A stretch of 64,000 nt of DNA, from the IMG/VR virus record IMGVR_UViG_3300024346_000006. One strand, written 5' to 3'. Position numbers and translations under genes: made by a program. This document shows positions 20,973 to 40,631 of the stretch, one piece after another; the first letter of the stretch is position 1, and the number at the start of each line of letters is the position of its first letter. The notes below the pieces were generated by a model. That model had not been told where the DNA came from. It did not search any database and saw only the letters and a list, made by a program, of their open reading frames with translations. This DNA is from a virus (Duplodnaviria > Caudoviricetes).

Positions 20973-21047
20973 TAATCATTCCAAAATAAAAAAAAATAGT
21001 GTAGTTTTGTATACTACACTATTCTGAGCGGTAAGTCAAGTAGTTTT

Positions 21048-23814: not shown

Positions 23815-26800
23815 CTATTTTATATAACTTGCAATTTTTTTGGCTCTGGGTTTATTACCGTATTTTTCCATCGCCATTTGTTCTACTTCTTTTTTAACTT
23901 GGTTCGTATTATATTTAGGGTTCATTTCTCTAACGATTTCTTCCATTTCCTTTGCATCTTTTTTATCGGAATTTTCAATGATTATATTGATTTCGTTAAT
24001 CTCTTCCCTTTTCATAATTTTATATGCAAGATCAACTAACTTAGGCAATGGAAGTTTTTCCATCTTAGACTTATTAGAGTCGTTGACCTTATCGTATATT
24101 TGAACAACTGCAGATGCAGTAAACAAATCAACGATAGTCCCTTTAATTTTCTTTGCCTGTTTGTTATCAACGATATCTCTCATATCATCAATAATAGACT
24201 CTGCAAAAAGTTCGGCCTCTTCTTTTAGTCCAAGTTTTTTTGCAAGGTCTGCGGCATCTTTGCCCATTCCATAAGAGTTGTCTTTGATTCTCTGTTTAAA
24301 CCAATTTTTAATTACTGGACGAGCATCACCCTTTGGATTTTTCTTACCAGCATCCGCAAGATCGTCAAACAATTCATCGTCACCCAAAAGACTATAAAGT
24401 ACCTCTGTTGCATCATCTCCCTCTTTTCCGAGAGTAATTGGTTTAGACATCAATTTCTTTAATGCAGTCACTTCGGATGACTTGTCAGCAAATGCCCAAG
24501 TACCTTCTTGCAAATCTTCATTTGTTAATTGGATTGCTTTGGAAATTGCAGGATCATCAGAAAGTCCTTTTGCAATCTTTTCAATTGTTCCGATAATCTG
24601 TGTCATATTACCACCCTTCCAACGAGGGTCATTAAGAACACCAAATGCCATCTTGTACTGTTTCGTAGAATACTTTTTCTCACTAATAGTTTCTAATTCT
24701 TCGAAAATTCTTGCTGCCTGTCCAAGAGATATAGTGTTAATCGCACCCATATCATCTAAAGTTCTAAACTTAATACTTGTTCTGTCTAGTTGTAGTTCGA
24801 CATCATAAACTTTTCCGTTTTTACCACGAATACTATAGATAATTCCATTTTTCATTTTTGGGCTACTACCCTTAATTTTTGGAGCACGTTCTGTAATTTC
24901 TTCTTTTATATCTACAGGCGAAACTGCCATATCTCCGAAAGCCATTGTAACTCCTCCATCTCTTTTGTACAAATATCTTTTAGCACTAGTAGGACTATCT
25001 TTTCTTGCCAGAGTAATTTTTTCTACTGTGCCGTTACGAACCATGTTCTTAGACTTGACAATATACTCAATAAAATCTTTACCCTTCTCTAACGCAGAGT
25101 CATGTTTGATTTTAACAGTAGAACCCTTTTTTAGTTTATCAAAAACTCTAAGTAACTTAGGGTCGTTCATCTTCATACCTTCAACCATTTCTGCCTTTGA
25201 AGACGCCTCTTGGACTTCTTCCTGTTTATGTTTTGCTCTGATTGTTGCAAGAAGTTCTTCACCCATTCTCTTACCCTGAGATGCACTAACATTAGTTGGA
25301 AACTTATCCATATTTGATGGTAAAGGCCTTCCAATCATTTTTTCGGATTCTTTTTGGCTCTGTGGTTTTGTAAGAGTAACAATCTTTAGAGTATTCTTAT
25401 TCTTGATCGACATAGGCGGCAGTTCTGCAGAAGCTCTAGACTGTTTAACACCCTTTTCGCTAGATGCCATCGCAACAACTTTGTTACCGTTTGCAGTATC
25501 AATCAGTGCATGGGTGTTTTTCATTGCTTCATTCATTTCTGGGGTTTCGTGAGAATATCCTAGTTTTTTCATGCGTTCATGATCTTCTGGTTTTTCTGCT
25601 TTGTAACCTTTACCTGTCTTTGGATCATACATCATATGTGGTTTGAATTCGCCTTCACCAAGTTCTACTTCTTCTTTGTACATGTTCAGTTCATATCTCT
25701 TGTTGTCAAGATTTGCAACTTGAATTTGTACACCTCTAGATTTACCCTTCTTATCAGTACCCATCAAACGATACGAATTAGTTTTTCCATTAGATGGTTT
25801 TTTAGGGCCCATAGCAACTTTATCGTCAATTTCATCTGGGTCGATTTCAATTCCAAGTTTTTTCTTTGCATGGTCATATGCATGTTTCATTGCACTAGAA
25901 AAGTCTTTGTGATATAACTCGTAACCAGTCGCAGACTTTGCTTCATCGAACCGCATTGAGTGTTGCCCAGTACTTCGAACCTTCTCTGCATCCTTCATAG
26001 TCTTGTAAGGTTTACCTTGGTTTACAAATTTACCCTTAGTCATAACCTGTACTTGGAAACCTTTGTTTGGGAGTTTATCAACACCCAACTCTTTACGAAT
26101 TTTGTCTTGTGCTTTGTTACCCAAATCAATGATACGAACCGTACCTTCTTTAGATGCTTCATCAAGATCTTCTCCAACAAGTCTTTTTGCATACGCATTA
26201 AACGACTTTTGATCTTCTACAGAGTCTTTACCTTTACCTAGACCTTGGAAAATTTCTCTCCATGCCTTTCCGTCATTCGTCTTTTTGAAGTATGCCTGCA
26301 GTTTAGCAGCAGTTTTTTTGTCAACATTTATAATTTCTTTATCATCATAAGATAGACTCCCAATTGCATGTTTACCAGCTCTAACTTCCCAACGTTCTTC
26401 TAAAATTTTATTAAAAATTTCTTCGGTGGTGATATCTTCTTTTCTATATCCAAGTTTCTTCAATTTCTCTTTAAATGCAGATTGTCTACCATCAAATTGC
26501 TTTTCGTTAGAAAGGTCTTTTTTACCTTGATCTTTATACATCAATTTCTGGAGTTTTTCTTTAAAGGCCTTTGTTCTACCATCCAATTCTTGTTTTTTAA
26601 TTTCGATAGAATCTTTTACAGCGTTTTCTAAATTTCCCCTGTCGTTACACATATCACATCCTTTACCTTCACACTTAACGCAAGGCATCTTTCCTTCTTT
26701 TACCGCCTTCGCAACTTTGTCAGAAATAGTGACAGGATACTCCTTATCGCCGAATTTAAATTTTGTCTTGCCTGCTGATTTCGCAGCACTAGCAGCACCA

Positions 26801-26970
26801 ATAAAGTCAGCAACATCTTCTTCTCTTACTTTTTTTGCAACATCCTTACTGATAGTGACAGGATACTCTTTATCGCCAAGTTTAAATTTTTTCTCACCAG
26901 CGGCCTGCGCTGCAGACGCTGCACCAATAAAGGCGGCAATGTCTTCAATTGTCATATTCTTTTTAAACAT
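23815..26970 (-). CDS. Large modular putative internal head protein (1051 aa)
   Basis: K/E-rich; N-terminal 42-aa duplication; CxxC-CxxC; many xxE junctions (LDEA, FDEA, MNEA, VQEA, ITER, LQEG, LKEE). Confidence 0.65.
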   Translation of the reverse strand: MFKKNMTIEDIAAFIGAASAAQAAGEKKFKLGDKEYPVTISKDVAKKVREEDVADFIGAASAAKSAGKTKFKFGDKEYPVTISDKVAKAVKEGKMPCVKCEGKGCDMCNDRGNLENAVKDSIEIKKQELDGRTKAFKEKLQKLMYKDQGKKDLSNEKQFDGRQSAFKEKLKKLGYRKEDITTEEIFNKILEERWEVRAGKHAIGSLSYDDKEIINVDKKTAAKLQAYFKKTNDGKAWREIFQGLGKGKDSVEDQKSFNAYAKRLVGEDLDEASKEGTVRIIDLGNKAQDKIRKELGVDKLPNKGFQVQVMTKGKFVNQGKPYKTMKDAEKVRSTGQHSMRFDEAKSATGYELYHKDFSSAMKHAYDHAKKKLGIEIDPDEIDDKVAMGPKKPSNGKTNSYRLMGTDKKGKSRGVQIQVANLDNKRYELNMYKEEVELGEGEFKPHMMYDPKTGKGYKAEKPEDHERMKKLGYSHETPEMNEAMKNTHALIDTANGNKVVAMASSEKGVKQSRASAELPPMSIKNKNTLKIVTLTKPQSQKESEKMIGRPLPSNMDKFPTNVSASQGKRMGEELLATIRAKHKQEEVQEASSKAEMVEGMKMNDPKLLRVFDKLKKGSTVKIKHDSALEKGKDFIEYIVKSKNMVRNGTVEKITLARKDSPTSAKRYLYKRDGGVTMAFGDMAVSPVDIKEEITERAPKIKGSSPKMKNGIIYSIRGKNGKVYDVELQLDRTSIKFRTLDDMGAINTISLGQAARIFEELETISEKKYSTKQYKMAFGVLNDPRWKGGNMTQIIGTIEKIAKGLSDDPAISKAIQLTNEDLQEGTWAFADKSSEVTALKKLMSKPITLGKEGDDATEVLYSLLGDDELFDDLADAGKKNPKGDARPVIKNWFKQRIKDNSYGMGKDAADLAKKLGLKEEAELFAESIIDDMRDIVDNKQAKKIKGTIVDLFTASAVVQIYDKVNDSNKSKMEKLPLPKLVDLAYKIMKREEINEINIIIENSDKKDAKEMEEIVREMNPKYNTNQVKKEVEQMAMEKYGNKPRAKKIASYIK
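26700..26950 (-). repeat. 126-bp (42-aa) in-frame tandem duplication
   Basis: atagtgacaggatactc at 26726 and 26852; FIGAASAA...KFK.GDKEYPVTIS twice. Ends approximate. Confidence 0.9.
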
Positions 26971-26998: not shown

Positions 26999-29125
26999 CT
27001 ATTTTTTAACCTTGGCCCACAAATCTGCATCACCAGTAGTTCTTGTTTTCCCACCTGTGATAAAAGAATTCACTCTCGCAAACGCCCATTGTTGTGGAGT
27101 AGTTCCCGGCCTGTGGCCACCCTTCCAGGCCGCCATACCTCTATCATATACCTTTTTTAGAATTTCATATGAAATACCAGATTTATCTGCCTTTTTAACT
27201 AATCCAGCAATCTTTGCTTCGTCTAATGTCTCTGTACTATCTTCGCCAAACATCTGCTTATATTTCTTAGTATATTGTGAAGGTTTCGTTTCTGCATCTG
27301 TATCTCCAGGCGCTGGTTTATAAGAAGAATCTTTTCTATCTGGTTTAGATGCCTGTTTTTTAAAATGAGCAGCTCTTTTATCTTTAGTAGACTTGGACAT
27401 CTCATCACCATCAGCATCTTTTGCATAATACTTTTTTGGTTGAGATCCCTCTTTGTCTTTGATATCTGGGTCTTGAGTTGTCTTTCTTTCGTAAATAAAT
27501 TGTGAAAAACTTTTTATATTCTCTTCTAAATCTTCCGCAGAATAACCAAGTTTCTTTTTTAGTATATTCATTGCAGTTGCCATCTTAACTTGCATCCACT
27601 CATCGCCGTATCTTTTCTTAAAATCATCATCTGGCAAATCTTTTGCAATCTTTTCTAAATCCTTTTCTCTTTCTGGATTCATCTTAAAATCTTCTAGTTT
27701 ATTTCCGTCCTTGTCGTACTTACCAGATTTCTTTTTCGCAATCGCAATCGCAGCCTGTTGAGCTCTAGATACACCTTCATCTTTTCCAGAAATCCTGTCA
27801 CGGAAATCTTTTTTAATTTCTCCATCTGTCACTTTCTCAACATCTTGAATAATCTTTGGATTTTTTAATAATTTGCGTAGGTTGTTTTTAACTTCCCCAG
27901 CACTACTTGCATCTATATAAAAAGTAGGTAATCCTTCAATATCTACTTGATAATTTGCTTCCTCAAGACTTTCATATTTTAATTCTTTACTTGATGTAGA
28001 AAAATTCTTTTTACGCATGATTGTTTTATGTACAACTTCAAACTCACCATTCTTGTAATTGATGACTACAGGCAGATTTAAATTAGTTGACATGTCTTTG
28101 AGAACTGCTTCGATATCAGGATTTGACTTAATCTGCGAACCTTTTTTCTTTTGAATCTTTTTGAAAAACTTTTGAAGTTCTGCAACTTTAATCTCTGGGT
28201 CATTTCTTTTATCATTCATTCTGTCAACAAAATGTCTTGTAAATGTAACATCAATATCATACTTTGCAAGCATTCTATCTGCAAACTTTTCTAAATCATC
28301 AATTTGTTTTTGAGACACTTCCTCATTATTGTATATTTTTTTATATACCGTATCATAATCATCATCAATACCAATTTTAAAATCTAACTCTTTATAAACA
28401 GATTCCATCAATATTTCATCTTCGATATCTTCTACAATCTCTACAAATTCTGTTTCAATAAAACGTGAAAAGTCTGCATTGGTTGCTTCAAGAAACTCTA
28501 ACAATTCTTCACTTATATTCATTGACTTTCTGAGAGTATCAAATAATTTTTTTCCATTAGACTTTTCAAAGTCAGAAGGCAAACCAGATTTAAATCCGTT
28601 GAGTATTTTACCAGTTTTCGGGTCTTTCTCATCTTCATATCTATTTGCAGCTGCTGCTGCTCTCATTTTAGATGCTGACATACCAGCAACACCCTCTGCA
28701 TCAGGATCTCTTTCCCCCGCAGAAACTACTTCAATACCATCTTTAAAATCATAGAAACCATGGCTTCCTTCTTTACCATTATATTTGTTAAGTGTAGTTT
28801 TAAATTCTGTAACTCTATCTCCACCGACAACCATAATACATCTCTTATAACCCATGTCATATAACATAGGAGCAATCATAAATGCAGTCTTTGCATTTCT
28901 ATTAGAGATGATATTGCGAGAATACTTTGGAAACATCTTTTTCATAAAACCAACTTTAGTTTTATGATCTAAAGGATCTTTTTTGTCATTTTGTGAATGA
29001 CTAGGAAATACCATAAAGTCGGCGCCTTCTTTTTTAGCAACCGATGCAAGTTTTTTTATTAATTTTTCGTGTCCTGTGGTTGGGGGATTAAACCTACCAA
29101 ATGTAAAAATTACTGTATCTTTCAT
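26999..29125 (-). CDS. Cytidyltransferase-like (HIGH-fold) nucleotidyltransferase fused to further modules (708 aa)
   Basis: FTFGRFNPPTTGHEKL, VVGGDR, MSASKMR; internal FTRHFVDR domain; C-terminal QWAFARVNSF module. Confidence 0.85.
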   Translation of the reverse strand: MKDTVIFTFGRFNPPTTGHEKLIKKLASVAKKEGADFMVFPSHSQNDKKDPLDHKTKVGFMKKMFPKYSRNIISNRNAKTAFMIAPMLYDMGYKRCIMVVGGDRVTEFKTTLNKYNGKEGSHGFYDFKDGIEVVSAGERDPDAEGVAGMSASKMRAAAAANRYEDEKDPKTGKILNGFKSGLPSDFEKSNGKKLFDTLRKSMNISEELLEFLEATNADFSRFIETEFVEIVEDIEDEILMESVYKELDFKIGIDDDYDTVYKKIYNNEEVSQKQIDDLEKFADRMLAKYDIDVTFTRHFVDRMNDKRNDPEIKVAELQKFFKKIQKKKGSQIKSNPDIEAVLKDMSTNLNLPVVINYKNGEFEVVHKTIMRKKNFSTSSKELKYESLEEANYQVDIEGLPTFYIDASSAGEVKNNLRKLLKNPKIIQDVEKVTDGEIKKDFRDRISGKDEGVSRAQQAAIAIAKKKSGKYDKDGNKLEDFKMNPEREKDLEKIAKDLPDDDFKKRYGDEWMQVKMATAMNILKKKLGYSAEDLEENIKSFSQFIYERKTTQDPDIKDKEGSQPKKYYAKDADGDEMSKSTKDKRAAHFKKQASKPDRKDSSYKPAPGDTDAETKPSQYTKKYKQMFGEDSTETLDEAKIAGLVKKADKSGISYEILKKVYDRGMAAWKGGHRPGTTPQQWAFARVNSFITGGKTRTTGDADLWAKVKK

Positions 29126-29508
29126 GACCCTGCTCTTGTGATTTTAGTGATTCTTTCAATCTGTTGATTGATAATAGCCTCTCTATTGGGCCAGTAAATA
29201 TACTCTTTTTCTTTATTCTTCATTAGATTATTTAGAAGAGGCATTATCAAGTTCTCCACCTCTTGTAATTTATTTGATACAATAACTTTCTCATTTTCAT
29301 AGTAATCTTTTACTATAGAAACTTCATCCAACATACTTCCAAGGCGGTCTGCAAGATTGTCCATTTTATATTCTAAAAGTTTTACGCTCTCGCCTGTAGT
29401 CTCCAACTGAGAAGACATCTCTTGAGTATGGGTAGATGTACCAGTTAATCCTTTAAGATCATCTTCATCTACTGCTGTAAAACCAAAATCTATATCGTCT
29501 TGTGTCAT
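29122..29508 (-). CDS. Hypothetical protein (128 aa)
   Basis: Coupled by overlaps on both sides; NKEKEYIYWPNR motif. Confidence 0.65.
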   Translation of the reverse strand: MTQDDIDFGFTAVDEDDLKGLTGTSTHTQEMSSQLETTGESVKLLEYKMDNLADRLGSMLDEVSIVKDYYENEKVIVSNKLQEVENLIMPLLNNLMKNKEKEYIYWPNREAIINQQIERITKITRAGS

Positions 29509-29786
29509 GTGTCAAACCTATGAATTTTTATTTCTAATTTTCCACAGTCATATCCTTTTATGACTCTGTGAAAAACTCCTTTTTTTATTTTCAACATCAT
29601 TCCTTCCAAAAGGAGAAAAGGAAATTCGTCATCATACTGAAAGTGCCATCCATCGGAGTATAATATTTCAACCAATCTAGTTTCATTGTCTCTGTGCCAC
29701 ACTAAATCATTTACATCAGAATCGCCAGAAAATGTTCTCTTTACTGTTCTTTCATTAATTACTGTTTCAATATATGGAACCATCAT
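29505..29786 (-). CDS. Small cupin-like protein (93 aa)
   Basis: LVWHRD..TR...WHFQYDD..P...IKKGVFHRVIKG cupin-like pattern. Confidence 0.6.
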   Translation of the reverse strand: MMVPYIETVINERTVKRTFSGDSDVNDLVWHRDNETRLVEILYSDGWHFQYDDEFPFLLLEGMMLKIKKGVFHRVIKGYDCGKLEIKIHRFDT

Positions 29787-29796
29787 AAATCACCTA

Positions 29797-30339
29797 TTAC
29801 CAGAAAAAATTACCACCACCACTTAATCCAAGTTGTTTTGCATACTTTGGAAGTCTACATGCCCAATAGCCTGGTTTTGTCTTATCGTTTTTCTGATCGC
29901 AATTATGTCTTGCAACAAAACTCTTTCTTGCCTCTGGGTCATTAATTTTTGCAGTCAATCCTGTTGTATCCCCAAATGAAATCTTAATTACATTTCCTTT
30001 ATCATTTTTAACATATACATAATACTTTTTCTTACCACCCCTCTTTGGGGAATTCAATTCTACATCTTCTTCCATCAAGGGGCAGTCTAAAGGAACATAT
30101 ACGGCATCAAATTCTTGTTTCTCAAACATCGCCCACTCACCAATATCTGTTTGTAACATTTCAATGTCGTAAAGGTCAAACTCGAGCTTACCTTCTTCAT
30201 ATAATTTTCTCGCCACTCTAAAGGTTTTGTAAAAATTATTTGAACCTAGACGAAAGACATTATCAATTAGTGGTATTTCATTCTGTCTATGATACAACAC
30301 CATTTCTTCTATATTTTGAAACTGTTTATAAGTTTTCAT
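29797..30339 (-). CDS. Putative internal head protein (180 aa; start revised to 30339)
   Basis: Starts MKTYKQFQNIEE (ATGA overlap with upstream stop); C-terminal KYYVYVKN...FGD...ARKSFVARHNC...GYWAC module. Confidence 0.7.
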   Translation of the reverse strand: MKTYKQFQNIEEMVLYHRQNEIPLIDNVFRLGSNNFYKTFRVARKLYEEGKLEFDLYDIEMLQTDIGEWAMFEKQEFDAVYVPLDCPLMEEDVELNSPKRGGKKKYYVYVKNDKGNVIKISFGDTTGLTAKINDPEARKSFVARHNCDQKNDKTKPGYWACRLPKYAKQLGLSGGGNFFW

Positions 30340-30839
30340 CTCAATAACTTCTCCAATTCTCTCATAGTCTTCGCTGGATTGATATGACGAATACCAATAC
30401 CACCTTTCGCTTCCCATTCTTTTATATTCTTAGGATAATCATCAATTAGAATATTTGGTTTATCATTTGTTGTAGCAAATTTCTGTTTATCTTCTCGTTG
30501 GACTAAATGTATTTTTCCATTCAATCTCAAATTTTTTGAAATCCAAGCTCTTTTACCTTTTTGCGAATTCGAATCTCTTTTGGAATATGCAGATAAAATG
30601 TTTGCATTGTACTTGTTTAACATTTTCCACATCTTTTCCGAGCCTGACATCCATGGTAGGGTGTGCCAAAAATCTTTCTTGGATTTAATATCTTCCCATC
30701 TTTCTTCTTTGTCGGTTGATGCAAAGTCTTTATTAAATGCGGTTGTATAACCGCCTGTGAAATTACAAAGAACTTCGTCCATATCACAATAAATTTCTGG
30801 CATTTCTTTTTCAAAAATATATTGATTGAAAGTTTTCAT
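30336..30839 (-). CDS. HAD-family phosphatase (NT5C-like) with CTS-like N-terminus
   Basis: MKTFNQYIFE then IYCDMDEVL, ILSA, ILIDDYPKNI...GGIGIRH. Confidence 0.8.
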   Translation of the reverse strand: MKTFNQYIFEKEMPEIYCDMDEVLCNFTGGYTTAFNKDFASTDKEERWEDIKSKKDFWHTLPWMSGSEKMWKMLNKYNANILSAYSKRDSNSQKGKRAWISKNLRLNGKIHLVQREDKQKFATTNDKPNILIDDYPKNIKEWEAKGGIGIRHINPAKTMRELEKLLR

Positions 30840-31129
30840 TTCATTAAACCTTTTATTACTTTTAGTGCCATCTTACCATCTGGGTGATGCGGATTAATAC
30901 TGACTTCATCCCCATTAACAAAATCAGAAATACTAGCTGACTTGCCAAGAGCAGTAATTGCTTTGTGTAGTGGATCTTTTGGATCGTATCTTCGTTCAAA
31001 ATTGGGTTTTCCTCTTAGTTCGACCCAGCTCTTTTCTTTAGTATCCCACATCTTAAGTACATCTTGATCTTTACCACGAACCAATTTGAGCTTAATACCT
31101 TCAGAAAGATATTGAGTAAAACCTAACAT
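30836..31129 (-). CDS. Hypothetical protein with CTS-like N-terminus (97 aa)
   Basis: MLGFTQYLSE-GIK...; overlaps both neighbours. Confidence 0.65.
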   Translation of the reverse strand: MLGFTQYLSEGIKLKLVRGKDQDVLKMWDTKEKSWVELRGKPNFERRYDPKDPLHKAITALGKSASISDFVNGDEVSINPHHPDGKMALKVIKGLMK

Positions 31130-32073
31130 CAGTCATCGTCCATTTCGTCCATGATACTGTAATCATAAACAGCGTCGATGTAATCCTTTGCCTTCGTCAC
31201 TTTAGAAACTACCCACGCCTCCATTTCATATTCATTATTTTGTGGATTATCGACTTCTTCCATAAGTGCCTCTGCAAGTTCTGTGGACTTATTAGAAAGA
31301 ATGATGAGTTGTCTCAACATCATCTCCAAACTATCCTGTGCAAACTCTGCGTCTTCTATAAATAGTTCTTCTTTAATTCCTCTTGCGGCCTTTTCTGCAG
31401 AAATCCACTTTTTAGCGACAGTTTTAGTTGGTGATTTCTTTGTCCACGCTCCAATAGTTCTATATGCCCTCATAACATCTCTTTCAAAGTCTGCGCCGTC
31501 AGAGTTATCAATTACAAACATTTTTTCCTTAAATGCAGACTGAAATTTACCAATGTTTCCTTGAACACCTTTCCACATAGATTCAACTTCATTGTCTGGA
31601 AGACTTCTCGCTCTTAATCTATTTCGGTTTAATGCGGTGTCTAAATCGGTATTGACAAAAATCATTGCGGTTTCGTAACCCATCGCCTCTAACTTGTCTT
31701 TTTGTTTTTTAATTTTATCATAATCTTTTCCAGTACCATCGACAACAAGTCCAAGTCTACCCCTCATATATCCCGCCTGTTGCGCCGCAGTAAGTGCTTT
31801 TGCTTTACCTCTTACTTGTTGTCCAAGGTCAGAGAAAATATCATCTGGATTTCCTTTGTCCAGTCCCGACTTATCCAACGCCCTTTCAAATGCAGGGTCG
31901 GAGTTTACAACTCTCAATCCAAAAGAAGTAAGTGCAGTTCTACCTACAATAAAAGATTTACCAGAACCTGGCCCACCGGCGAGGAACACCGCCTTAAAGA
32001 TGCCTGGGTCATTGATACCTTCTTCTAAAGTTTCTTCATTTCTAAGATTTTCGATTATATTTCTTATATCCAT
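31129..32073 (-). CDS. P-loop kinase (zeta-toxin/polynucleotide-kinase-like; start revised to 32073)
   Basis: AVFLAGGPGSGKS Walker A, VNSD, LVVDGT, ALNRNRLRAR lid; extra C-terminal module after IKEE. Confidence 0.8.
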   Translation of the reverse strand: MDIRNIIENLRNEETLEEGINDPGIFKAVFLAGGPGSGKSFIVGRTALTSFGLRVVNSDPAFERALDKSGLDKGNPDDIFSDLGQQVRGKAKALTAAQQAGYMRGRLGLVVDGTGKDYDKIKKQKDKLEAMGYETAMIFVNTDLDTALNRNRLRARSLPDNEVESMWKGVQGNIGKFQSAFKEKMFVIDNSDGADFERDVMRAYRTIGAWTKKSPTKTVAKKWISAEKAARGIKEELFIEDAEFAQDSLEMMLRQLIILSNKSTELAEALMEEVDNPQNNEYEMEAWVVSKVTKAKDYIDAVYDYSIMDEMDDD

Positions 32074-32074
32074 T

Positions 32075-33328
32075 TTACTTGTCCCATGCCTTTGCTGCAG
32101 TAAAGTTATTATAACTAAATTCCATTCGATCAACAATTTTCACGGCATTACCCTTTGTATCAATTGCAACATAACCTTCTGGATTTGTCACTTCATAACC
32201 GTTTTCTGTACGAACAAAAATCTGCGTTAACTGTTTAACACTATTTAGTTTATTTATAATAAGAGATTTAGCACCAATTAATTCTTCCATAAAATCAACA
32301 ATTGAATATGCAACACTGTCTAATTTAATTAATTGTTTTACTGCATCATCTCTAATTCTTTCTTTATCTTTTCTTGCACCTTCTGTTTTTAACTTTGCAA
32401 TAACTTTTTCGTCAAAAAACTTTTTAACATACATCGAATAGTCTAAATTTTTCATGTTCTTTGTAGAAATATTCTGTCCTTCACGAATATATGTGTTGAG
32501 ATAGGTTTTGAAACTTGCACCAGCAAGTCCTTTAATAAAAATTTTGTTTTGGAGTTGCATAAATGTTTTAAAATCGTTTGATCTGATTTTCTTAAATTTT
32601 CTACCAACTTGAGACATTTGCCCATCGAGTGTTTTTAGTTCGGACGAAGTAAATTTTGCAGAACCAGAAACATCTTTATATGTTGCATCATCCATCCACA
32701 CAGATGATGTTTTCTTTAATCCAGATATATTCACACCAAAAGAGGCCGTCATCGATGGTAAATCTTTTCCAGAATATGTTGTATGCCAAACAACACCAAT
32801 CTTTGCAGCGTTGATTGCCTTTCCTAAATCAGAATCTTTCTGAACTGCATACATCAATGTGTTTTGTTGGAATGTTAGATATGTCTCGCCATCAAGTGTT
32901 TTTTCTGACACATCATCAGTAAACATTAAGTCTCCTTGAATAACACCCTTAATTCCCAATTTAGAAAATTCTCGATATGCAACAGTAAATTTTGATTTTA
33001 ATGCGGGACTTAGTTTTATATCTGCATCGATCTCTGCAGTACTTTTATATAATAGTGGAGTCTCATTAAATACAGATTTTTTTGCGATAAAGAATTTTCC
33101 ATCACTTGGATCTATTCCAGCGAATATAGCAGGAGCACCGTCCCACTTAACTGTCATGTTTACTTTAGAATCTGAATTTCCTGCCAACATGTCTCTTAAA
33201 GATAAAAGAAATTGTACAGCGGCACGGCCACCATCGATTCCAAAGTTGAGAATTTCATCTTCAAGGTGTTCTAAGTGTAGATTTTTTCCACCTTTTGATT
33301 CAGTAAGATATTTTTTAAATGATTGCAT
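32075..33328 (-). CDS. Putative ATP-dependent ligase-superfamily nucleotidyltransferase with CTS-like N-terminus (417 aa)
   Basis: MQSFKKYLTE; TVKWDG (motif I, K61), IQGDL (III), PEGYVA (IV), AVKIVDR (V). Confidence 0.6.
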   Translation of the reverse strand: MQSFKKYLTESKGGKNLHLEHLEDEILNFGIDGGRAAVQFLLSLRDMLAGNSDSKVNMTVKWDGAPAIFAGIDPSDGKFFIAKKSVFNETPLLYKSTAEIDADIKLSPALKSKFTVAYREFSKLGIKGVIQGDLMFTDDVSEKTLDGETYLTFQQNTLMYAVQKDSDLGKAINAAKIGVVWHTTYSGKDLPSMTASFGVNISGLKKTSSVWMDDATYKDVSGSAKFTSSELKTLDGQMSQVGRKFKKIRSNDFKTFMQLQNKIFIKGLAGASFKTYLNTYIREGQNISTKNMKNLDYSMYVKKFFDEKVIAKLKTEGARKDKERIRDDAVKQLIKLDSVAYSIVDFMEELIGAKSLIINKLNSVKQLTQIFVRTENGYEVTNPEGYVAIDTKGNAVKIVDRMEFSYNNFTAAKAWDK

Positions 33329-34689
33329 TAGTAAAGTTTCCCGAATGGCCCAAATATTTTCCCCTTCTTTTGGGCAAGATATGTTAAAGTTGTTAGTAAA
33401 TCATCTCTTTTTTCATCATTTGTGATGGAGACAATTTCACACACCAAATGGAGTTGCATCAATTTACTATGAGCATAATCTGGTCTTGATGTGTTAAATG
33501 CCGATACCATATTTTTTTGAAACTGGTTTTCGGTTATTCCTGTATATTGTTTTACTTTGTTGAATTTATATAAGAATTTATTATAATCGTTCATGAATTC
33601 TTCTTCAGATGTAGGATAGTTTGTATTATCATTATCCCAATTAAGGCCTTCGTCTGTAAAAATTTTTCTGGCCATGTCTAAAGGAACTTTACCAAGTCTT
33701 GCGGAAGTTGCGCCCAAGTCTGTTCCTTCAATTTTTAAATTATTAAAACCAGCACTATTTTGTCTGATTTGAAATTTAATTCTTCCCTTTTTACCTGATA
33801 CAACAATTTTGGTATCTGAGTTAACAAACTCTCCATTTCCCTTTGTCTTAAGATTGATATCGATGTCTTGTAATTTAAAGTTATATTCTTTATCATCAAA
33901 GATGTCCATGTTTTCTAGATTTACAAGTTCCCATCTTGCAGTTGTACCTGACATCTTTTTTAGGGAAATACCAACTATTCTTCTTTCATGGAACATATCT
34001 CTTAGAATGGCGTTAAATTCTTCTAGGGAAGTTACATCATCTAATACTTTTTCTTTTAAGGTGTTTTTTACTTTATTAAGGTCAGATACCAACCATATGT
34101 CTGCAGGGTTCCAAGTATCTTTTTTTGCAATACCATATTTTTGTTTACAAATTCCAGTAATGTAATCCATAAATCCACGGTCTCTGGAATAGTGTTTATA
34201 ACTACTGTTTCCGACTTTATTATATGTTGTTAATTGTTGCTGAAAGAATGTATTTTCCCATTCTTCATTCATAGCTGGATAAATCTTTTTTAGATCATCA
34301 CGGTATAGTTTCATAAACTTGCCTTGATCTGTGTATCCATTATTTTCAATACCCATTTTTATCGCAAAAAGGGAGGCGAGTTCTTGCATCTGGGTAGTTT
34401 TCCCATCAGAACCGCCTCCCATTCCACTAAAGGGTGCTTTATCTATTTGTGTCCACTTGTATCCATTAAAAATTGGAAGGTATTTACCACTTTTTGTCAA
34501 AGAACTCATAACTCTAGGTTGCGACTTGTCCTTCACTGCCCCAAGAAACTTCTTTACTTCTGGAGTCAATTGAACCATAGCCTTTGATCTATCCGCAAAC
34601 TTTAGTTCTTTTTTACTATTAATCACATCTGCAACCATATTCAAGTATGGTTTTTCAAACTTTGTTTCTTTTGCTCCAAGGTTTGCCAA
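33328..34689 (-). CDS. PD-(D/E)XK-like nuclease (453 aa)
   Basis: TQMQE...KDTWNPADIWLV...IVGISLKK pattern. Confidence 0.55.
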   Translation of the reverse strand: MANLGAKETKFEKPYLNMVADVINSKKELKFADRSKAMVQLTPEVKKFLGAVKDKSQPRVMSSLTKSGKYLPIFNGYKWTQIDKAPFSGMGGGSDGKTTQMQELASLFAIKMGIENNGYTDQGKFMKLYRDDLKKIYPAMNEEWENTFFQQQLTTYNKVGNSSYKHYSRDRGFMDYITGICKQKYGIAKKDTWNPADIWLVSDLNKVKNTLKEKVLDDVTSLEEFNAILRDMFHERRIVGISLKKMSGTTARWELVNLENMDIFDDKEYNFKLQDIDINLKTKGNGEFVNSDTKIVVSGKKGRIKFQIRQNSAGFNNLKIEGTDLGATSARLGKVPLDMARKIFTDEGLNWDNDNTNYPTSEEEFMNDYNKFLYKFNKVKQYTGITENQFQKNMVSAFNTSRPDYAHSKLMQLHLVCEIVSITNDEKRDDLLTTLTYLAQKKGKIFGPFGKLY

Positions 34690-34720
34690 TGGAATTCCCT
34701 TTTTGTTGAGTTAATACCAT

Positions 34721-34728
34721 TATTTATA
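34721..34728 (-). promoter_or_regulatory. T4-type late promoter TATAAATA
   Basis: Exact consensus 32 nt upstream of ORF 34689, heading the 13.6-kb coupled operon. Confidence 0.75.
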
Positions 34729-34731
34729 ATT

Positions 34732-35382
34732 TTACATATAATGTAGATAAGTGCCGACTACATACTTATCATCAGACTTTGCAGACATACACTGATGTGG
34801 ATGTGTCCAGAAAGGTGGCCAGATTGCGAGCCTCCCCCTAACTGGATTCACACTTAGGTTATAATCTGGAAAGACTGTTTCGCCACCCTCTTCAACATCA
34901 TTCAAATAGAAAAAACATGCAACAAATCTTTTTGCAGATAAGTGGTCTCCAACATCCGCATGATATTTAAAATCATCATCAGAACCCTTAGTGTATTTTT
35001 TCATCTTAATTTCTTCATTGACACACTGGCCAGGAAAAAACATAATATTATTATGTCTCCGATACATTTCAGTATACTCAGAAATAATACCTAAAAGTTT
35101 CATAGACCATTCTTCAAATTCTGGGAACTTTTCACATAGTTCTGGGTCAAAGAAATTTACCTCAGTATATGTTCTTGCTTCGGTATTTAATTTTCTCTGA
35201 TGGTCAGTTGCCGATTCGAATAACTCGATCATCTTATTACAATCTTCATCTGATAAAACATTATCCCAAACCGAAATGAATGCTCGTTGACCATCGGGTG
35301 GTCGCATATCAAATTGTTCTTCATCTACTTCAAAATGAATTGTTGTTTCTGCAGTAGTAGCAGTATTTGTTTCTTGTGTCAT
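34732..35382 (-). CDS. 2OG-Fe(II) oxygenase (prolyl-4-hydroxylase-like)
   Basis: YHADVG (HxD), FFYLNDVEEGGETVF, PFWTHPH, KYVVGTY. Confidence 0.9.
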   Translation of the reverse strand: MTQETNTATTAETTIHFEVDEEQFDMRPPDGQRAFISVWDNVLSDEDCNKMIELFESATDHQRKLNTEARTYTEVNFFDPELCEKFPEFEEWSMKLLGIISEYTEMYRRHNNIMFFPGQCVNEEIKMKKYTKGSDDDFKYHADVGDHLSAKRFVACFFYLNDVEEGGETVFPDYNLSVNPVRGRLAIWPPFWTHPHQCMSAKSDDKYVVGTYLHYM

Positions 35383-36755
35383 ATTTTTATCTCCACACTT
35401 CCGATTTTTTTCTTTCCTTCGTTTTGAAAATTCTTATAGGATGATGTACTCACTTCTGATACAATATCATTTTGTGCAGAATTTTCTGCATCGTAAAGAC
35501 GCATCTTTGGCCTATCGATTCCAACAACAAAGCGTTTATTATTGTTAATATCATTATATCTATTCTTCAACTGTTTAACCAAAATCTGATTCATGTCTTC
35601 CAACTCTTCAGTAGATATTAACGCAAACATCAAGTCTGCAGTCGCAGGAAGTCCAAATGACTCTGAAGTATCTGTTAATTCAACATCTGTATTTGAGTAA
35701 CCAGAACGAGTAGTCTGTGTTGCGGTGATGATAGGTACATCATTCTCAACAGCAAGTCCTCTCAGTTCTTCTGCGATTGATTTTACAAGTGTATAAGAGT
35801 TTATACCAGCACCATAACGTATTCTTGCAGAACTACAAATATTCAAATAGTCAATGAATATAACATCTGGTGTAAAGTTCTTTTTGATTTGTAATTCATT
35901 CAACAAATGTCTAAAGTGATTTGCATTAGCAACTGCAGTTGGATACTCTTTAATAATCAACTTACCAGTAGTTTTATTTTTAATCTTTTCTATTTTCTTT
36001 TCGAATGCAGATTTGGAAATACTTGAAACATCTGCGATAGAAATGTTAAGTAAGTTGGCATCAATTCTTTCTGCAATTTTTTCTTCAGACATTTCTAATG
36101 TAATGTATAAAACGTTTTTCCCCATCATATAATGGTTTGCAGCGAGATCACACATAAACAAAGATTTACCAACACCAGTACCAGCAAGAGCAACATTTAA
36201 TGTTTTGTTTGATAGTCCACCTTTGGTAATTTCGTTGAACAAGTCCAAATGAAAAGGTATCTTCTCTTCTACTCTATTGTAAAACTCAAATCTATCTTCA
36301 AAGTTATCGACAAAATCATGGCCAATATGTGTATCAAACGATACCGCAAGTGCATCTTGTAATATTTTTGGTAAGTCACCTTTTTGGTCTTGATGGTCGT
36401 TCAATATACCAATCGATTTCATGACTGCATTATATAATGCACGTTCTTGACACCACTTTTCGGTATGATCTACTTGCCAGTCAGTTTCTTTCTCATCTGT
36501 TTCTTTTAATTTCTCAATGAGGATAAGTGACTCTTTAAAATTATTTTCACTTAAACTAACATCATCTAATGATATCATCAAAGAGTCTTTGGTTGGCGTA
36601 GTATTGTATTTTTCGACATGACTACGAATCAACTCAAATATAACTTTATTTGACTCACTAGTAAAATAGTCTTTTTCTAGGTATGGTAATGTTCTTCGCA
36701 CATAATCTTCATTAGAATATAATGCACTTAGAATTACACTTTCACTTAATTCCAT
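35379..36755 (-). CDS. gp41: Replicative DNA helicase (T4 gp41)
   Basis: LAGTGVGKS, YITLEMSE, IFIDYLNI, ATQTTRSG, TSESFGLPATAD, QLKNRY. Confidence 0.97.
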   Translation of the reverse strand: MELSESVILSALYSNEDYVRRTLPYLEKDYFTSESNKVIFELIRSHVEKYNTTPTKDSLMISLDDVSLSENNFKESLILIEKLKETDEKETDWQVDHTEKWCQERALYNAVMKSIGILNDHQDQKGDLPKILQDALAVSFDTHIGHDFVDNFEDRFEFYNRVEEKIPFHLDLFNEITKGGLSNKTLNVALAGTGVGKSLFMCDLAANHYMMGKNVLYITLEMSEEKIAERIDANLLNISIADVSSISKSAFEKKIEKIKNKTTGKLIIKEYPTAVANANHFRHLLNELQIKKNFTPDVIFIDYLNICSSARIRYGAGINSYTLVKSIAEELRGLAVENDVPIITATQTTRSGYSNTDVELTDTSESFGLPATADLMFALISTEELEDMNQILVKQLKNRYNDINNNKRFVVGIDRPKMRLYDAENSAQNDIVSEVSTSSYKNFQNEGKKKIGSVEIKI

Positions 36756-37074
36756 TCAATTTATCCGCTTCATTATAAAGTTTTTTTGCTTCGGACTCTA
36801 AGGTCTTCGCTCTATTATGTAGTTCTAAAATCTTTTCTTCTTTAGTTAAAGTTTTTTTTTGATCGATCAAAGTAATTGTTTCTGGTTCTTTATCTTCAGT
36901 ACCATAAACTTCTTTCCACTTATCTGCAGGACATCTTAGATTTGCAATCTTTGCTTTTGCAGGCATAAAACATCCACACTTTTTACATACGAGGGCCAAA
37001 CCTTGAAAGTGTTCGCACCCTCTACAAGTATTGAGTCTTTGTTTATACACATGTTTAGAAGCAAAGATTTTCAT
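36742..37074 (-). CDS. Small Cys-rich protein (110 aa)
   Basis: CRGC...CKKCGCFM..K......CPADKW followed by a coiled coil. Confidence 0.65.
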   Translation of the reverse strand: MKIFASKHVYKQRLNTCRGCEHFQGLALVCKKCGCFMPAKAKIANLRCPADKWKEVYGTEDKEPETITLIDQKKTLTKEEKILELHNRAKTLESEAKKLYNEADKLNGIK

Positions 37075-38090
37075 CTAATACCAACTCTATATTTCTTTTT
37101 CAAGAAGTCATTGAACTTAGAGTCCGCCAGTAGGGTTTCCCAAAACTCCATGGAATGAGTTTCTTTTTCACGAAACTTCTTATCATCAACCGCACCAGTT
37201 TCTGGATCAACCATTTGATACCATCCACCAGATCTAGATATTACACCATAATCTAGTGCCATGTCAAGAAGACCTGATGAATTATCTACACCATTTTCCC
37301 AAGAAACTGAAATGGGGATTTTAGACTTCTCTCTGACAAACCTAGACTTCTCCACATTGATTACAAAATGATAACCTTGGATTTCGGCACCAACTTTATC
37401 CTGCTGTCTACCTACAATCCAAATTGTATCTGCACTATAGTACATACCTGTTCCACCAGAAACTACCTTCGTTGGATACAGACCCTGTGAGTCATATGTA
37501 TGATTAATTGCAACCATTGGAATATCTTTCATTGTTAGATGTGGAGTTATCATTCTAAACAAAGATTTAAATTGTTTTGCTCTTGTCATATCAGCGGCAG
37601 ACTTTTGATTCTCTGCATCGTCTACTTCTTTTTTGGATGCAAGGTTTCCTACAGAATCAACCATGATGAAAAGTTTATCTTCTGTTTGAATTTCTTTTAA
37701 TTGCGAAACCATATCAAATTTTAATTCTTCCAGATCAGTAACTGGAATGTGAACTACTCTTGAAGTGTCAATTTCAAACACATCAAAATAATTCTGCGGC
37801 GTGCCAAACTCACTATCATAAAAAAGTGCAACACCTTCTGGATACTTGTCAAGATATGCCTTCATCATAATCAATCCAAACGCAGTCTTGAAGTGTTTAC
37901 TTGGGCCTGCAACCATAGTCAACCCAGATGTGTATCCTTTATCTAACGAACCAGAAAACGCAACATTCATTGCAGGAATGTTTGTAGGAATATTATCCTT
38001 TTCGTGTAGAAATGGAGACTCAGAAAGAGTGTTTACTCTTCCATCTTTGAAAGAACTATTCTTTCTCAATTTACTCATTAATCCCGACAT
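37071..38090 (-). CDS. uvsX: RecA-like recombinase
   Basis: AGPSKHFKT, YDSEFGTP, DSVGNLAS, VSGGTGMYYS. Confidence 0.97.
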   Translation of the reverse strand: MSGLMSKLRKNSSFKDGRVNTLSESPFLHEKDNIPTNIPAMNVAFSGSLDKGYTSGLTMVAGPSKHFKTAFGLIMMKAYLDKYPEGVALFYDSEFGTPQNYFDVFEIDTSRVVHIPVTDLEELKFDMVSQLKEIQTEDKLFIMVDSVGNLASKKEVDDAENQKSAADMTRAKQFKSLFRMITPHLTMKDIPMVAINHTYDSQGLYPTKVVSGGTGMYYSADTIWIVGRQQDKVGAEIQGYHFVINVEKSRFVREKSKIPISVSWENGVDNSSGLLDMALDYGVISRSGGWYQMVDPETGAVDDKKFREKETHSMEFWETLLADSKFNDFLKKKYRVGIR

Positions 38091-38102: not shown

Positions 38103-40631
38103 TTAAAAAAAATCGTCTATTGTGAATATTTTTTCAACCTTCCATCCAATCGCATCGGTGATGGTTTTAATTGGATCAAGGAAGGCCTTTTCGAATTGTT
38201 TTGTATAATCAATGTAATCATTTAATCCAAACTCATCTGGAATAATTGATGCCATTGCAATGGTATTATTACCGATTGGATTTGGTTCTTTAAGGTAAAC
38301 AAACTTAATCTTTTCGCCCTCCTTAATAATTGGATAAGTCATATCCAATTTATGTTTCTTAACCAAATTATTGAAATGAATAACTCCTTTTACATGGATG
38401 GGCGTTCCCTTCTTGAATAGTGATACAGAATCGAAATACTTTCGTAATCCGTTAACACTTCTAGGAAATGCAACTTCGTCTACAGGAAAAGTTTTAAAGT
38501 CTTCTCTAAAAGTGTCGATAAACTCAATAAGTTCATCATTATCACCACCCATAATAACCTTAAAGGATTCTTTTAACTTGTCCCGACATGCGGCCGGAGT
38601 AGATGATCGAACCGCCTCAATACCCATGATTTTTAGGTCTGGTTTTTTGAATCGAACACCTTCACTATCATGAACATTTAGAATATATCTTTTCTTTGCA
38701 GTCCACAATCCTTTTGATGCAATCACTTCTCTTTTCATGAACATCTTCTGTTCATATGCATTCATATACGAAGCAAGTTCTTGATAACTGCGATCAATAA
38801 AAGGTTCAAATTTCTCCTGAGCGACTCTATCAAGAAAGTTAACAATTCGTTCCGTTTGTACACCACCCTCAATCGTCTCTCCTGCAGTTCCTTGGTCAAA
38901 CACTTTATGTACCAAGTCACCAAGAGTGACGTATATCGAATCCGTATCGCTTGCAATAACATAATTCTTTTCTTGTTCATTTTGTAGAATTTTGTTAACA
39001 TATTGATTTACCTTTTTTTCAATCCATCTGATAGATAACTGTCCAGATAGAGTGATAGACTCCGCCTGTCTAATGTCGAAATACCTAAAGTACTGATTCC
39101 CCAACGCACCATAGGCGGAGTTGAGAAGAATCTTTGCGGCCATCTGTTTGTTGTTAAGTGCGGCAATTTTTTGATCTAGTTCTTTGAGGTCGCCGATACC
39201 ATCAATTTTCTTTTGTTTTGTCTTCAACATTTCCTTCTTGTACAAAACTCTGTCATCATACATCTTTTGCATAAGTTTTGGGAGGAAACCTTTCTTGTCA
39301 TTATTATATAGAACACCATTGGGGGTAAGTGACAAGTTACTCTTAGAAATAATTTCTGTATTTGTTTTCATTTCTAATAGATCATCAACGGACGTATCTA
39401 CTCTATCAGTTTCAACCAAAGTTTCAGGCGAAATGTTGTACTGCATAATAAGGTGCGGATATAGACTGTTCAAGTCAAACGAAAGAATCCAGTCATGCAT
39501 TCCGACAGTTGGTTCCTTTACATATGCACCGGCGTATGCAGCAGTTTTACTGTTATGTCTTTTTGGGGGGATTACAATATTATCTTTTTTAAGATGATTA
39601 AATGCAATCGAGTCCCAAGTTTTGATGGGGGAAAATACCTCATCATAGTTTACTCTCGCCTCGTATGCAATTGTAATCAACAGTTCCAAAAGTTTAAGTT
39701 TATCGTCAAGTTTATCGACAAGTTCAACGTCTTTGATATTATAGTCAATATACTTTTGATAATCCTCTTTGTAGAACAAGTGCATGTGTGAGAACTCTGA
39801 GTGATCTAACTTTCTTTCACCCAACTCGACAAAGGCAATATGATCGAGGCGATAACTTTCTCTTGTCACATAGGTAAACTTTCGATATAAGTCAAGATAA
39901 TCGACAATAGTAATACCAAGCACATTAACTTGTTCTTGCAATTGTCCACGAATATTTTTTTGCATTCTATCTACAATGCCCCAAGGAGAAAGTCTTTTAG
40001 TGTTACTTTCTCCAAGAATTTTTGTGATACGATTTACAAGATAACTCATATCAAACTGATTAACATTCCAACCAGTCACAACATCAATATCTGCGGCCTC
40101 CCACAAATTTAAGAAAGACTTAAGAAGTTCAATCTCACTGGTACATTTGTAATACTTAATATTAAGATGGGACAATGACTCATTAGTGTTTTCCCAATCA
40201 CCCAAACCAAGAACAGTGTACATATCATCATACTTAAGAGTAATGGCGTTAACACGTTCTATTGCCTCTAGAGGATTGGGGAAACCGTTTTCACACTCAA
40301 CTTCAATGTCAAGTGTTGCAATTCGAATCTTCTCCAAGTCAAATTCTAAATCTGAATAGTTATCTGCAATGTATGGATAAACAAACTGAGTCATTCCATA
40401 GAATGAAAGAATACCATCATTTTCTTTTATCTTTGCTCTTGCGGAAGATATATCTGGGAACTTTACCTTCCTCAAATACTTACCGTCAAGAGAACGATGT
40501 GATGTTTTTTCTTTTACTTCATAAAAAAGAGATGGCGAGTAAGAAGTGCGATACCTCTTACGCTCACCATCAACAGTTTCTTTGACAAGAATTTTATTTC
40601 CAAGATTTTGGATATTAGTATAAAATCGCAT
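38103..40631 (-). CDS. gp43: Family B DNA polymerase (T4 gp43)
   Basis: DIEVE exonuclease, SFDLNSLYPH, KILLNSAYG, ASDTDS. Confidence 0.98.
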   Translation of the reverse strand: MRFYTNIQNLGNKILVKETVDGERKRYRTSYSPSLFYEVKEKTSHRSLDGKYLRKVKFPDISSARAKIKENDGILSFYGMTQFVYPYIADNYSDLEFDLEKIRIATLDIEVECENGFPNPLEAIERVNAITLKYDDMYTVLGLGDWENTNESLSHLNIKYYKCTSEIELLKSFLNLWEAADIDVVTGWNVNQFDMSYLVNRITKILGESNTKRLSPWGIVDRMQKNIRGQLQEQVNVLGITIVDYLDLYRKFTYVTRESYRLDHIAFVELGERKLDHSEFSHMHLFYKEDYQKYIDYNIKDVELVDKLDDKLKLLELLITIAYEARVNYDEVFSPIKTWDSIAFNHLKKDNIVIPPKRHNSKTAAYAGAYVKEPTVGMHDWILSFDLNSLYPHLIMQYNISPETLVETDRVDTSVDDLLEMKTNTEIISKSNLSLTPNGVLYNNDKKGFLPKLMQKMYDDRVLYKKEMLKTKQKKIDGIGDLKELDQKIAALNNKQMAAKILLNSAYGALGNQYFRYFDIRQAESITLSGQLSIRWIEKKVNQYVNKILQNEQEKNYVIASDTDSIYVTLGDLVHKVFDQGTAGETIEGGVQTERIVNFLDRVAQEKFEPFIDRSYQELASYMNAYEQKMFMKREVIASKGLWTAKKRYILNVHDSEGVRFKKPDLKIMGIEAVRSSTPAACRDKLKESFKVIMGGDNDELIEFIDTFREDFKTFPVDEVAFPRSVNGLRKYFDSVSLFKKGTPIHVKGVIHFNNLVKKHKLDMTYPIIKEGEKIKFVYLKEPNPIGNNTIAMASIIPDEFGLNDYIDYTKQFEKAFLDPIKTITDAIGWKVEKIFTIDDFF

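Follow-up and report, generated by a model that had tools for sequence, protein, structure and literature searches.

A candidate late-transcribed capsid-cargo operon around a ligase-like DUF6267 protein in a marine T4-like phage

We analyzed a stretch of viral DNA of 64,000 nucleotides (nt; IMG/VR record IMGVR_UViG_3300024346_000006), referred to below as the window. The subject of this study is a chain of genes on its minus strand that runs from 34689 to 26999 behind a T4-type late promoter motif. Its products include a ligase-like DUF6267 protein, a P-loop kinase and a HIGH nucleotidyltransferase, and several of them start with a short leader that resembles the capsid-targeting sequence of T4 internal proteins. 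The genome is that of a T4-like marine myophage, with Methylophilales phage Melnitz and Pelagibacter phage HTVC008M as its nearest isolates; Melnitz shows ~72% nucleotide identity to the window, in parts of the region only. The operon lies within the replication module and comprises the following features, given in the direction of transcription with protein lengths in amino acids (aa):

34721-34728 (-): T4-type late promoter motif TATAAATA, 32 nt 5' of the first gene (TTG start at 34689)
33328-34689 (-): 453-aa conserved phage protein, phrog_1462; TTG start, no leader in this phage
32075-33328 (-): DUF6267 protein, 417 aa, a predicted RNA-ligase-like covalent nucleotidyltransferase; leader MQSFKKYLTE
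31129-32073 (-): P-loop kinase (Zeta_toxin/AAA_33 type), 314 aa; acidic C-terminal tail, no clear leader
30836-31129 (-): 97-aa protein; leader MLGFTQYLSE
30336-30839 (-): NT5C-type HAD phosphatase, 167 aa; leader MKTFNQYIFE
29797-30339 (-): 180-aa protein, phrog_7595; starts with MKTYKQFQNIEE, a leader variant
29505-29786 (-): small cupin-fold protein, 93 aa (Atlas model); homologue Melnitz_19
29122-29508 (-): 128-aa acidic coiled-coil-like protein
26999-29125 (-): 708-aa mosaic protein with HIGH nucleotidyltransferase, middle module and C-terminal DUF5824
20993-21025 (-): terminator-like hairpin (13-bp stem plus T run) between a chain of small genes and the gp61 primase gene

An initial annotation of this DNA had placed a late promoter at 34721-34728 at the head of a translationally coupled operon ending at 26999. 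Both the motif and the coupling are borne out. TATAAATA is located inside the 42-nt gap between the stop of an oxygenase gene (34732) and the TTG start (34689) of the 453-aa gene, and the junctions between the genes from 34689 to 26999 measure -1, +1, -1, -4, -4, +10, -4 and -4 nt. The end at 26999 did not hold, since the co-directional chain runs on with short gaps to the hairpin at 21025-20993, which suggests that the hairpin ends one transcription unit of ~13.7 kb begun at the 34728 promoter. Two gene starts were corrected as well: the kinase most likely begins at ATG 32073 (314 aa) and not at TTG 32136, and the sixth gene most likely at 30339 (180 aa).

The window contains 16 copies of TATAAATA against 6.5 expected, a number reached by none of 100 shuffles. 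Among the further minus-strand copies, several lie just 5' of the genes for UvsY, the major head protein, the scaffold and the tail tube, and one lies 5' of an endo VII-like gene. The placement is therefore as expected of a late promoter. The sole copy of TATAAATA in 14.4 kb of Melnitz is found at the orthologous intergenic site, where cyanophage S-SZBM1 carries AATAAATA and HTVC008M has no clear copy of the motif. A second TATAAATA (32251-32258 (-)), inside the DUF6267 gene and ~180 nt 5' of the kinase start, could be an internal late promoter or a chance occurrence.

The DUF6267 protein and its partner enzymes

In a Pfam scan the 417-aa product matched DUF6267 alone (5.5e-98). This family is large: the 90% search gave at least 8000 matches, and clustering at 50% identity left at least 2567 clusters, of which 661 fall below 1e-30. 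An alignment of 83 representatives (34-64% identity) revealed invariant residues H18, H21, K61, D63, G64, Q131, D133, Y160, E384, G385 and K397, which correspond in order to ligase motifs I, III, IIIa, IV and V and include the signatures KWDG, EGYV and VKIVDR. The AlphaFold2 (AF2) model is confident (predicted local distance difference test, pLDDT, 91.8; predicted template-modeling score, pTM, 0.89), with residues 1-13 disordered. It places motifs III, IIIa, IV (EG) and V (K) in order on a nucleotidyltransferase fold, which is split between motifs IIIa and IV by a helical insertion of ~135 residues (approximately residues 228-362). When the Foldseek top 1000 were re-aligned to the model, 50 of 50 among the matches listed were ligases, with these scores:

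NgrRnl: 9.2 (185 residues aligned, root-mean-square deviation 3.8)
REL1: 8.9
T4 Rnl1: 8.2
Trl1: 7.9
T4 Rnl2: 7.9
DNA ligases: 6.2-6.9

At the sequence level, searches of the chains in PDB, with the single sequence as well as with the 83-sequence profile, gave chance matches only and no ligase, and the Pfam and NCBIfam scans of the protein returned no ligase family, Rnl1 and Rnl2 included. DUF6267 thus lacks a sequence-level family match to the ATP-dependent RNA ligases (Naegleria NgrRnl/Rnl5, Trypanosoma brucei REL1, T4 Rnl1/Rnl2, the ligase domain of fungal Trl1). It further differs from them in the helical insertion, in an invariant HLEH before motif I, in the absence of an OB or Rnl-type C-terminal domain, and in having a HIGH nucleotidyltransferase as its habitual neighbor or fusion partner. 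From the conserved motifs and the predicted fold we conclude that DUF6267 is a putative member of the covalent nucleotidyltransferase superfamily, nearest to RNA ligases, and that it would represent a new sequence family with a single-lysine motif V. The ligase-like character (KxDG/EGxV) noted initially is thereby sustained. We found no paper that names DUF6267 or assigns it a function. The family occurs in most marine T4-like phages. Its placement in the ligase superfamily would open a direct biochemical test.

Residues 1-220 of the 708-aa protein form the HIGH nucleotidyltransferase proposed previously, which is NMNAT/cytidylyltransferase-like (PF01467, 22.3 bits with a cut-off of 21; phrog_3041, 1.8e-77), and the motifs FGRFNPPTTGH and GMSASKMR are invariant across the family. 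Matches to the NadR-type and NadD-type NMNAT models of NCBIfam were weak (E values of 0.0015 and 0.013) and far below the curated cut-offs. A profile of the domain gave no usable match and no NMNAT among the PDB sequences, the best being MJ0951 at E 0.034. Residues 270-385 (27971-28318 (-)) match phrog_23027 and a Melnitz gene that stands alone and begins LKTFLQFEQ. The HIGH domain is homologous to the 'cytidyltransferase' of T4-like cyanophages (S-PM2, Syn9, S-SZBM1 ORF140, S-CREM2 ORF154; 33-41% identity), which is likewise encoded downstream of gp41, S-CREM2 excepted. It differs from these proteins in having no N-terminal leader and in its fusion to two more modules. The cyanophage enzyme is regarded in the literature as the product of an auxiliary metabolic gene; in the literature searchable here, neither its leader nor the ligase nature of its partner is described.

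The kinase carries the Walker A motif GGPGSGKS and scores above the cut-offs for PF06414 (38.2 bits, cut-off 22.3) and PF13671 (28.5 bits, cut-off 27). This agrees with its first description as a P-loop kinase resembling zeta toxins. Its neighbors in the Atlas are viral Zeta_toxin/AAA_33 clusters throughout, and a weak match links it to phrog_505, 'polynucleotide kinase' (6.8e-5). Judged by these profiles, the substrate could equally be a polynucleotide or a small molecule. The 167-aa product was correctly recognized as an NT5C-like HAD phosphatase with a DMD motif. It contains DMDEV (DxDxV, motif I) and IDDYP (DD, motif IV) and matches PF06941 NT5C (8.2e-9, 36 bits, cut-off 24.8) and phrog_2643 (7.3e-34). 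The Pfam scan returned no polynucleotide-phosphatase family, and by its motifs and profiles the protein is a clear member of the NT5C (mononucleotidase-type) family.

Capsid-targeting-like leaders and virion detection of homologues

The DUF6267, 97-aa and HAD proteins start with M-x-x-F-x-x-Y-[IL]-x-E and the 180-aa protein with a variant of it, so that the capsid-targeting-like peptides first reported for several of these proteins were recovered. The N-termini of the T4 internal proteins IPII and IPIII both read MKTYQEFIAE. According to a review on T4, the first ten residues are enough for head targeting; targeting depends on residues 4 and 7 and processing on residues 8 and 10, where Asp at position 10 prevents cleavage, but not targeting (PMC9026906). 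The leaders of the window agree with those of IPII and IPIII at the genetically mapped positions, with an aromatic residue at 4 and 7, Ile or Leu at 8 and Glu at 10. Two further genes of the window bear on the leader:

60807-61073 (-): 88-aa very basic open reading frame (ORF); leader MHSFLEFLED, followed by LDE-A
60175-60810 (-): gp21-type prohead protease (phrog_207, 2e-79), expected to remove the leaders

The 88-aa ORF overlaps the start of the protease gene by ATGA and has Asp at leader position 10. In T4 the corresponding position is occupied by the core proteins gp67/gp68. The ORF looks like an internal or core protein and is an internal control for the leader. The same window encodes a scaffold protein (phrog_237, 1.7e-65), and an LNE site is present in the N-terminal region of gp23.

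Leader counts were made for the window and the compared loci. Of 1246 candidate starts in the window, the leader pattern, written as a regular expression, matched 4, each of them a true gene start. Within 12 kb of T4 its matches were limited to ipII and ipIII, and 23 kb of S-CREM2 yielded one false internal match. For DUF6267, the majority consensus begins MxxFxxxLxE; among 83 representatives with a short N-terminus, 39 carry the leader, and many more have near variants. The consensus of the nucleotidyltransferase family starts MKxF....E, the Melnitz orthologue of the 453-aa protein starts MQGFKTFLSE, and diverged kinases bear the leaders MIRFKRFLEE, MLTFKSYLDE and MKSLHSFLTE. On these sequences, the leader appears to be old and portable. 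Inside the 708-aa protein, a leader-like segment (IKSFSQFIYE) is found at residues 537-546, but such a heptad is insignificant alone (background 0.43 per 1000 residues). In S-SZBM1, ORF191 and ORF192 (27312-28126 of the compared locus), located by a 'virion structural protein' gene, carry the leaders MKSFKSFLSE and MKTFKQYITE, and the leader may mark further cargo loci of this kind.

Published proteomes show that homologues of the nucleotidyltransferase occur in virions. Mass spectrometry of CsCl-purified S-SZBM1 virions detected the cytidylyltransferase ORF140 and its neighbors ORF139 and ORF136 (PMC9146016). ORF140 begins MRFRQFIIEA; the adjoining DUF6267 homologue ORF141 has no leader and starts at the conserved core. 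In CsCl-purified virions of S-CREM2, the cytidylyltransferase ORF154 and ORFs 155, 156 and 160 were found by the same technique; the authors name the ORF154 enzyme an NMNAT homologue and state that cytidyltransferases are often detected in cyanophage virions (PMC10665884). ORF154 begins MKNFSSFLTE and has a terminator hairpin and TATAAATA 23 nt upstream. The leader would account for this puzzling 'cytidylyltransferase' in cyanophage virions. Our literature search found no paper tying capsid-targeting sequences to cyanophages or to these proteins, and Sullivan 2010 contains nothing on these genes.

The candidate cargo resembles T4's IPI, IPII and IPIII internal proteins and Alt in several respects. 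Unrelated proteins share a similar 10-residue leader (aromatic 4 and 7, I/L 8, E 10), a late promoter and a gp21 homologue are present, and the cargo would include enzymes, as does that of T4 with Alt. In contrast to the small basic proteins of T4, it would consist of nucleotide or nucleic-acid enzymes of 20-80 kDa. Moreover, the locus is part of the replication module, and rearrangement and fusion of its modules have given rise to large mosaic proteins. If this is correct, the T4 capsid-targeting system is not confined to the coliphages from which it is known but also operates in the dominant myoviruses of the ocean.

Gene linkage and competing explanations

DUF6267 was found in 341 isolate phage records, mostly of cyanophages. 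The kinase occurs in 9 isolate phage records (in Melnitz 50 kb away), and more than 330 cyanophage records with DUF6267 lack it. We therefore do not recover the initial idea that the three activities of T4 Pnkp and Rnl1 are here split over separate genes, also because the HAD is of the NT5C type and independently distributed. The HAD does share the block in HTVC008M, Melnitz and one compared locus (L007). As a sample of diverged kinases we used 16 IMG/VR loci with a kinase 54-62% identical to that of the window. DUF6267 lies within a few kb of the kinase in 11 of the 16, mostly together with the nucleotidyltransferase, and at a 12th locus, on a short contig, the nucleotidyltransferase is located beside the kinase. 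The gene orders seen include kinase-DUF6267 and DUF6267-nucleotidyltransferase-kinase. Since the HAD is absent from all 16 loci, the conserved unit consists of the ligase-like protein and the HIGH nucleotidyltransferase, often with the kinase. By this distribution, the phosphatase would be a local addition, and the HAD, the cupin and the small proteins would be lineage-specific co-cargo. Regarding the synteny expected among T4-like genomes, the linkage of kinase, DUF6267 and nucleotidyltransferase thus holds in uncultured relatives, whereas a trio with the HAD appears unlinked in isolates.

Furthermore, each of the three possible pairs among the ligase-like protein, the nucleotidyltransferase and the kinase is also encoded as one polypeptide: DUF6267 with CTP_transf_like, seen in either order, kinase with DUF6267 (P0163; kinase 56% identical to that of the window), and CTP_transf_like with kinase and DUF5824 in a 799-aa ORF. 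The 708-aa protein and the 1051-aa product encoded 3' of it are mosaics, combining parts for which Melnitz has individual genes. A P-loop kinase linked or fused to a ligase-superfamily domain, here with a HAD nearby, is also the arrangement of T4 Pnkp (PseT), bacterial Pnkp/Hen1 and fungal Trl1. The present locus differs from these systems in a kinase nearer to zeta toxins by profile, in a HAD of the NT5C type that is not conserved with the others, and in an additional HIGH nucleotidyltransferase, which is the most constant partner.

The best explanation, to which we give a probability of roughly 0.45, is a late-transcribed capsid-cargo operon of a Melnitz/HTVC008M-like marine T4-like phage, built around a unit of ligase-like protein, nucleotidyltransferase and kinase. 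By analogy with IPII and IPIII, the leader would bind the scaffolding core of the prohead, and the gp21-type protease would remove it by cleavage after Glu10. The mature enzyme would remain in the head and then enter the cell with the DNA. Because several of the products bear a T4-type loading leader, their injection with the DNA is probable, and at least some of these proteins are probably packaged. It is likewise likely that the three enzymes form one functional unit, in which DUF6267, the HIGH nucleotidyltransferase and the zeta/PNK-type kinase would most likely serve a single class of substrates whose ends are phosphorylated and adenylylated. That this unit heals and seals nucleic-acid ends, 5'-phosphorylating broken RNA or DNA early in infection and then joining it by way of adenylyl transfer, we regard as plausible, but as less likely than not. 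If the enzymes are injected, catalytic activities would precede gene expression, which bears on the arms races in SAR11, OM43 and picocyanobacteria.

Several observations weigh against this explanation. The kinase, the nucleotidyltransferase and the 453-aa protein of this phage have no clear leader. For the kinase and the 453-aa protein this had been recognized at the outset. Thus, of the proposed pre-loading into the capsid, the match of the leaders to the T4 targeting sequence and the nucleotidyltransferase homologue in two cyanophage virions stand. The virion data come from cyanophage homologues and not from this phage's own proteins; S-SZBM1 ORF141, the DUF6267 homologue, is not among the 30 virion proteins detected (PMC9146016), and the S-CREM2 authors allow for contamination by abundant late proteins (PMC10665884). 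Where the DUF6267 domain is internal in fusions, its core is likewise preceded by an [ILV]-x-E segment, so the leader could be part of the fold and not a signal. Since modules are freely exchanged and joined at this locus, the fusions may point to cargo polyproteins that are later cleaved just as well as to a common pathway. Motif V of DUF6267 has one lysine in place of the usual two, the top-scoring family of the kinase is Zeta_toxin, and a comparison of the kinase with the whole T4 genome matched no T4 protein, an empty result that is no evidence in itself. Finally, the HAD occurs in 57 isolate records, mostly of rhizobial, Xanthomonas and other phages without DUF6267.

An alternative that we consider unlikely is that DUF6267 is no cargo at all, but the missing nick-sealing ligase of the Kyanoviridae, which stands in for T4 gp30 in replication and recombination and whose N-terminal segment belongs to the enzyme itself. 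PF01068 (ATP-dependent DNA ligase) has no match in the complete genomes of Melnitz, HTVC008M, S-SZBM1 and S-PM2, and PF01653 (NAD-dependent ligase) and PF09414 (Rnl2-type ligase) have none in the first three; T4, the positive control for PF01068 and PF09414, scored as expected. Melnitz, HTVC008M and S-SZBM1 have exactly one DUF6267 match each, S-PM2 has a DUF6267 gene, and T4 has none. In the absence of a canonical ligase, DUF6267 is the only candidate for nick sealing in these phages, and this gap keeps the alternative alive. The position of the gene, always between those of the gp41 helicase and the gp61 primase and by gp43 and UvsX, would suit such a role, as would the [ILV]xE segment kept before internal DUF6267 domains. 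A late, not an early, promoter motif heads the operon, although late expression is compatible with DNA metabolism, as for T4 UvsY and gene 49. However, the same leader is found on unrelated proteins and on the basic ORF beside the prohead protease. DUF6267 also has no OB or other DNA-binding domain, RNA ligases outscore DNA ligases as its structural neighbors, and its fused partner enzyme occurs in virions.

The initial annotation itself went further than the cargo operon, to a pre-loaded RNA healing and sealing kit like T4 Pnkp plus Rnl1, in which the kinase treats 5'-OH ends, the HAD removes 2',3'-cyclic or 3'-phosphates, and DUF6267 seals tRNA or other RNA cut by host defense nucleases, starting as soon as the DNA is injected. 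The structural precedence of RNA ligases, the linkage and fusion of the kinase to DUF6267, the leaders together with the published virion proteomes, and a leader-bearing HAD in the operon (and in the block of HTVC008M, Melnitz and L007) all speak for it. Nevertheless, this model appears very unlikely to us. Its phosphatase is an NT5C protein that matched no polynucleotide-phosphatase family in the Pfam scan; none of the diverged kinase loci encodes it, and it is frequent among phages that lack DUF6267. In cyanophages, DUF6267 and the nucleotidyltransferase are retained in the absence of kinase and HAD, and the model assigns no role to the always-linked HIGH nucleotidyltransferase. Highly improbable, too, is the broadest form of the idea, that in marine T4-like phages, the Kyanoviridae as well as their relatives on SAR11/OM43 hosts, a T4-type targeting peptide brings an entire machine for nucleic-acid end repair into the capsid. 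It would comprise a DUF6267 RNA ligase, a polynucleotide kinase and a HIGH nucleotidyltransferase supplying or recycling the adenylyl donor and, once injected, would undo RNA- or DNA-cutting defenses before phage expression. If true, it would be among the most abundant counter-defense systems of the ocean.

Least probable of all is a module for NAD+ or nucleotide pools that restores or exploits NAD+ when it is depleted by host defenses, with the HIGH domain as NMN adenylyltransferase, the kinase feeding its substrate as in NadR, the HAD interconverting mononucleotides and DUF6267 using, for example, NAD+: the weak NCBIfam matches (E 0.0015 and 0.013), the NMNAT label of the S-CREM2 homologue, the NadR-like domain order of the CTP_transf_like-kinase fusions and the mononucleotidase type of the HAD fit it, but every NMNAT match is far under the curated cut-offs, the profile search of PDB sequences gave no NMNAT, in Pfam the kinase does not match the NadR kinase family, and we know of no phage NAD+ pathway so composed.

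Other genes of the chain and its neighborhood

The first gene of the operon had been taken for a PD-(D/E)XK-like nuclease, an assignment for which we found no support. The model of the whole 453-aa protein (pLDDT 87.6) found no nuclease among its Foldseek matches in four structure libraries (PDB, VIA wide, AFDB clusters, Atlas). The invariant residues D197 and S242-L-K244 are present, but the topology does not fit PD-(D/E)XK. The sole match in PDB is an uninformative FF-like three-helix subdomain (residues 92-162).

For the 93-aa protein, the predicted cupin was confirmed at the level of the fold: its Atlas model (pLDDT 0.86) reaches template-modeling scores of 0.75-0.80 to Cupin_2 clusters, with no match in Pfam. 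The 180-aa protein corresponds to a module that forms the C-terminus of the Melnitz nucleotidyltransferase protein. The 97-aa and 128-aa proteins gave no family match.

Upstream of the operon lie four genes, the last of them directly upstream:

38103-40631: gp43 polymerase
37071-38090: UvsX
35379-36755: gp41 helicase
34732-35382: 2-oxoglutarate-Fe(II) (2OG-Fe(II)) oxygenase

On its 3' side, the 1051-aa ORF, several small genes and two Rz-like spanin genes are followed by gp61 primase and NrdAB. The layout gp43-UvsX-gp41-[453-aa-like]-[DUF6267]-[cytidylyltransferase]...gp61-NrdAB is common to Melnitz, HTVC008M, S-PM2 and S-SZBM1. The 1051-aa ORF (23815-26970 (-)), without a family match of its own, is pieced together from segments found as individual genes (_20, _21 and _30) in Melnitz and may be a cleavable cargo polyprotein. 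The two adjacent spanin genes (phrog_812 and phrog_739; 21367-22121 (-)) stand at the end of the co-directional chain within the replication module, and their presence in the chain is consistent with late expression.

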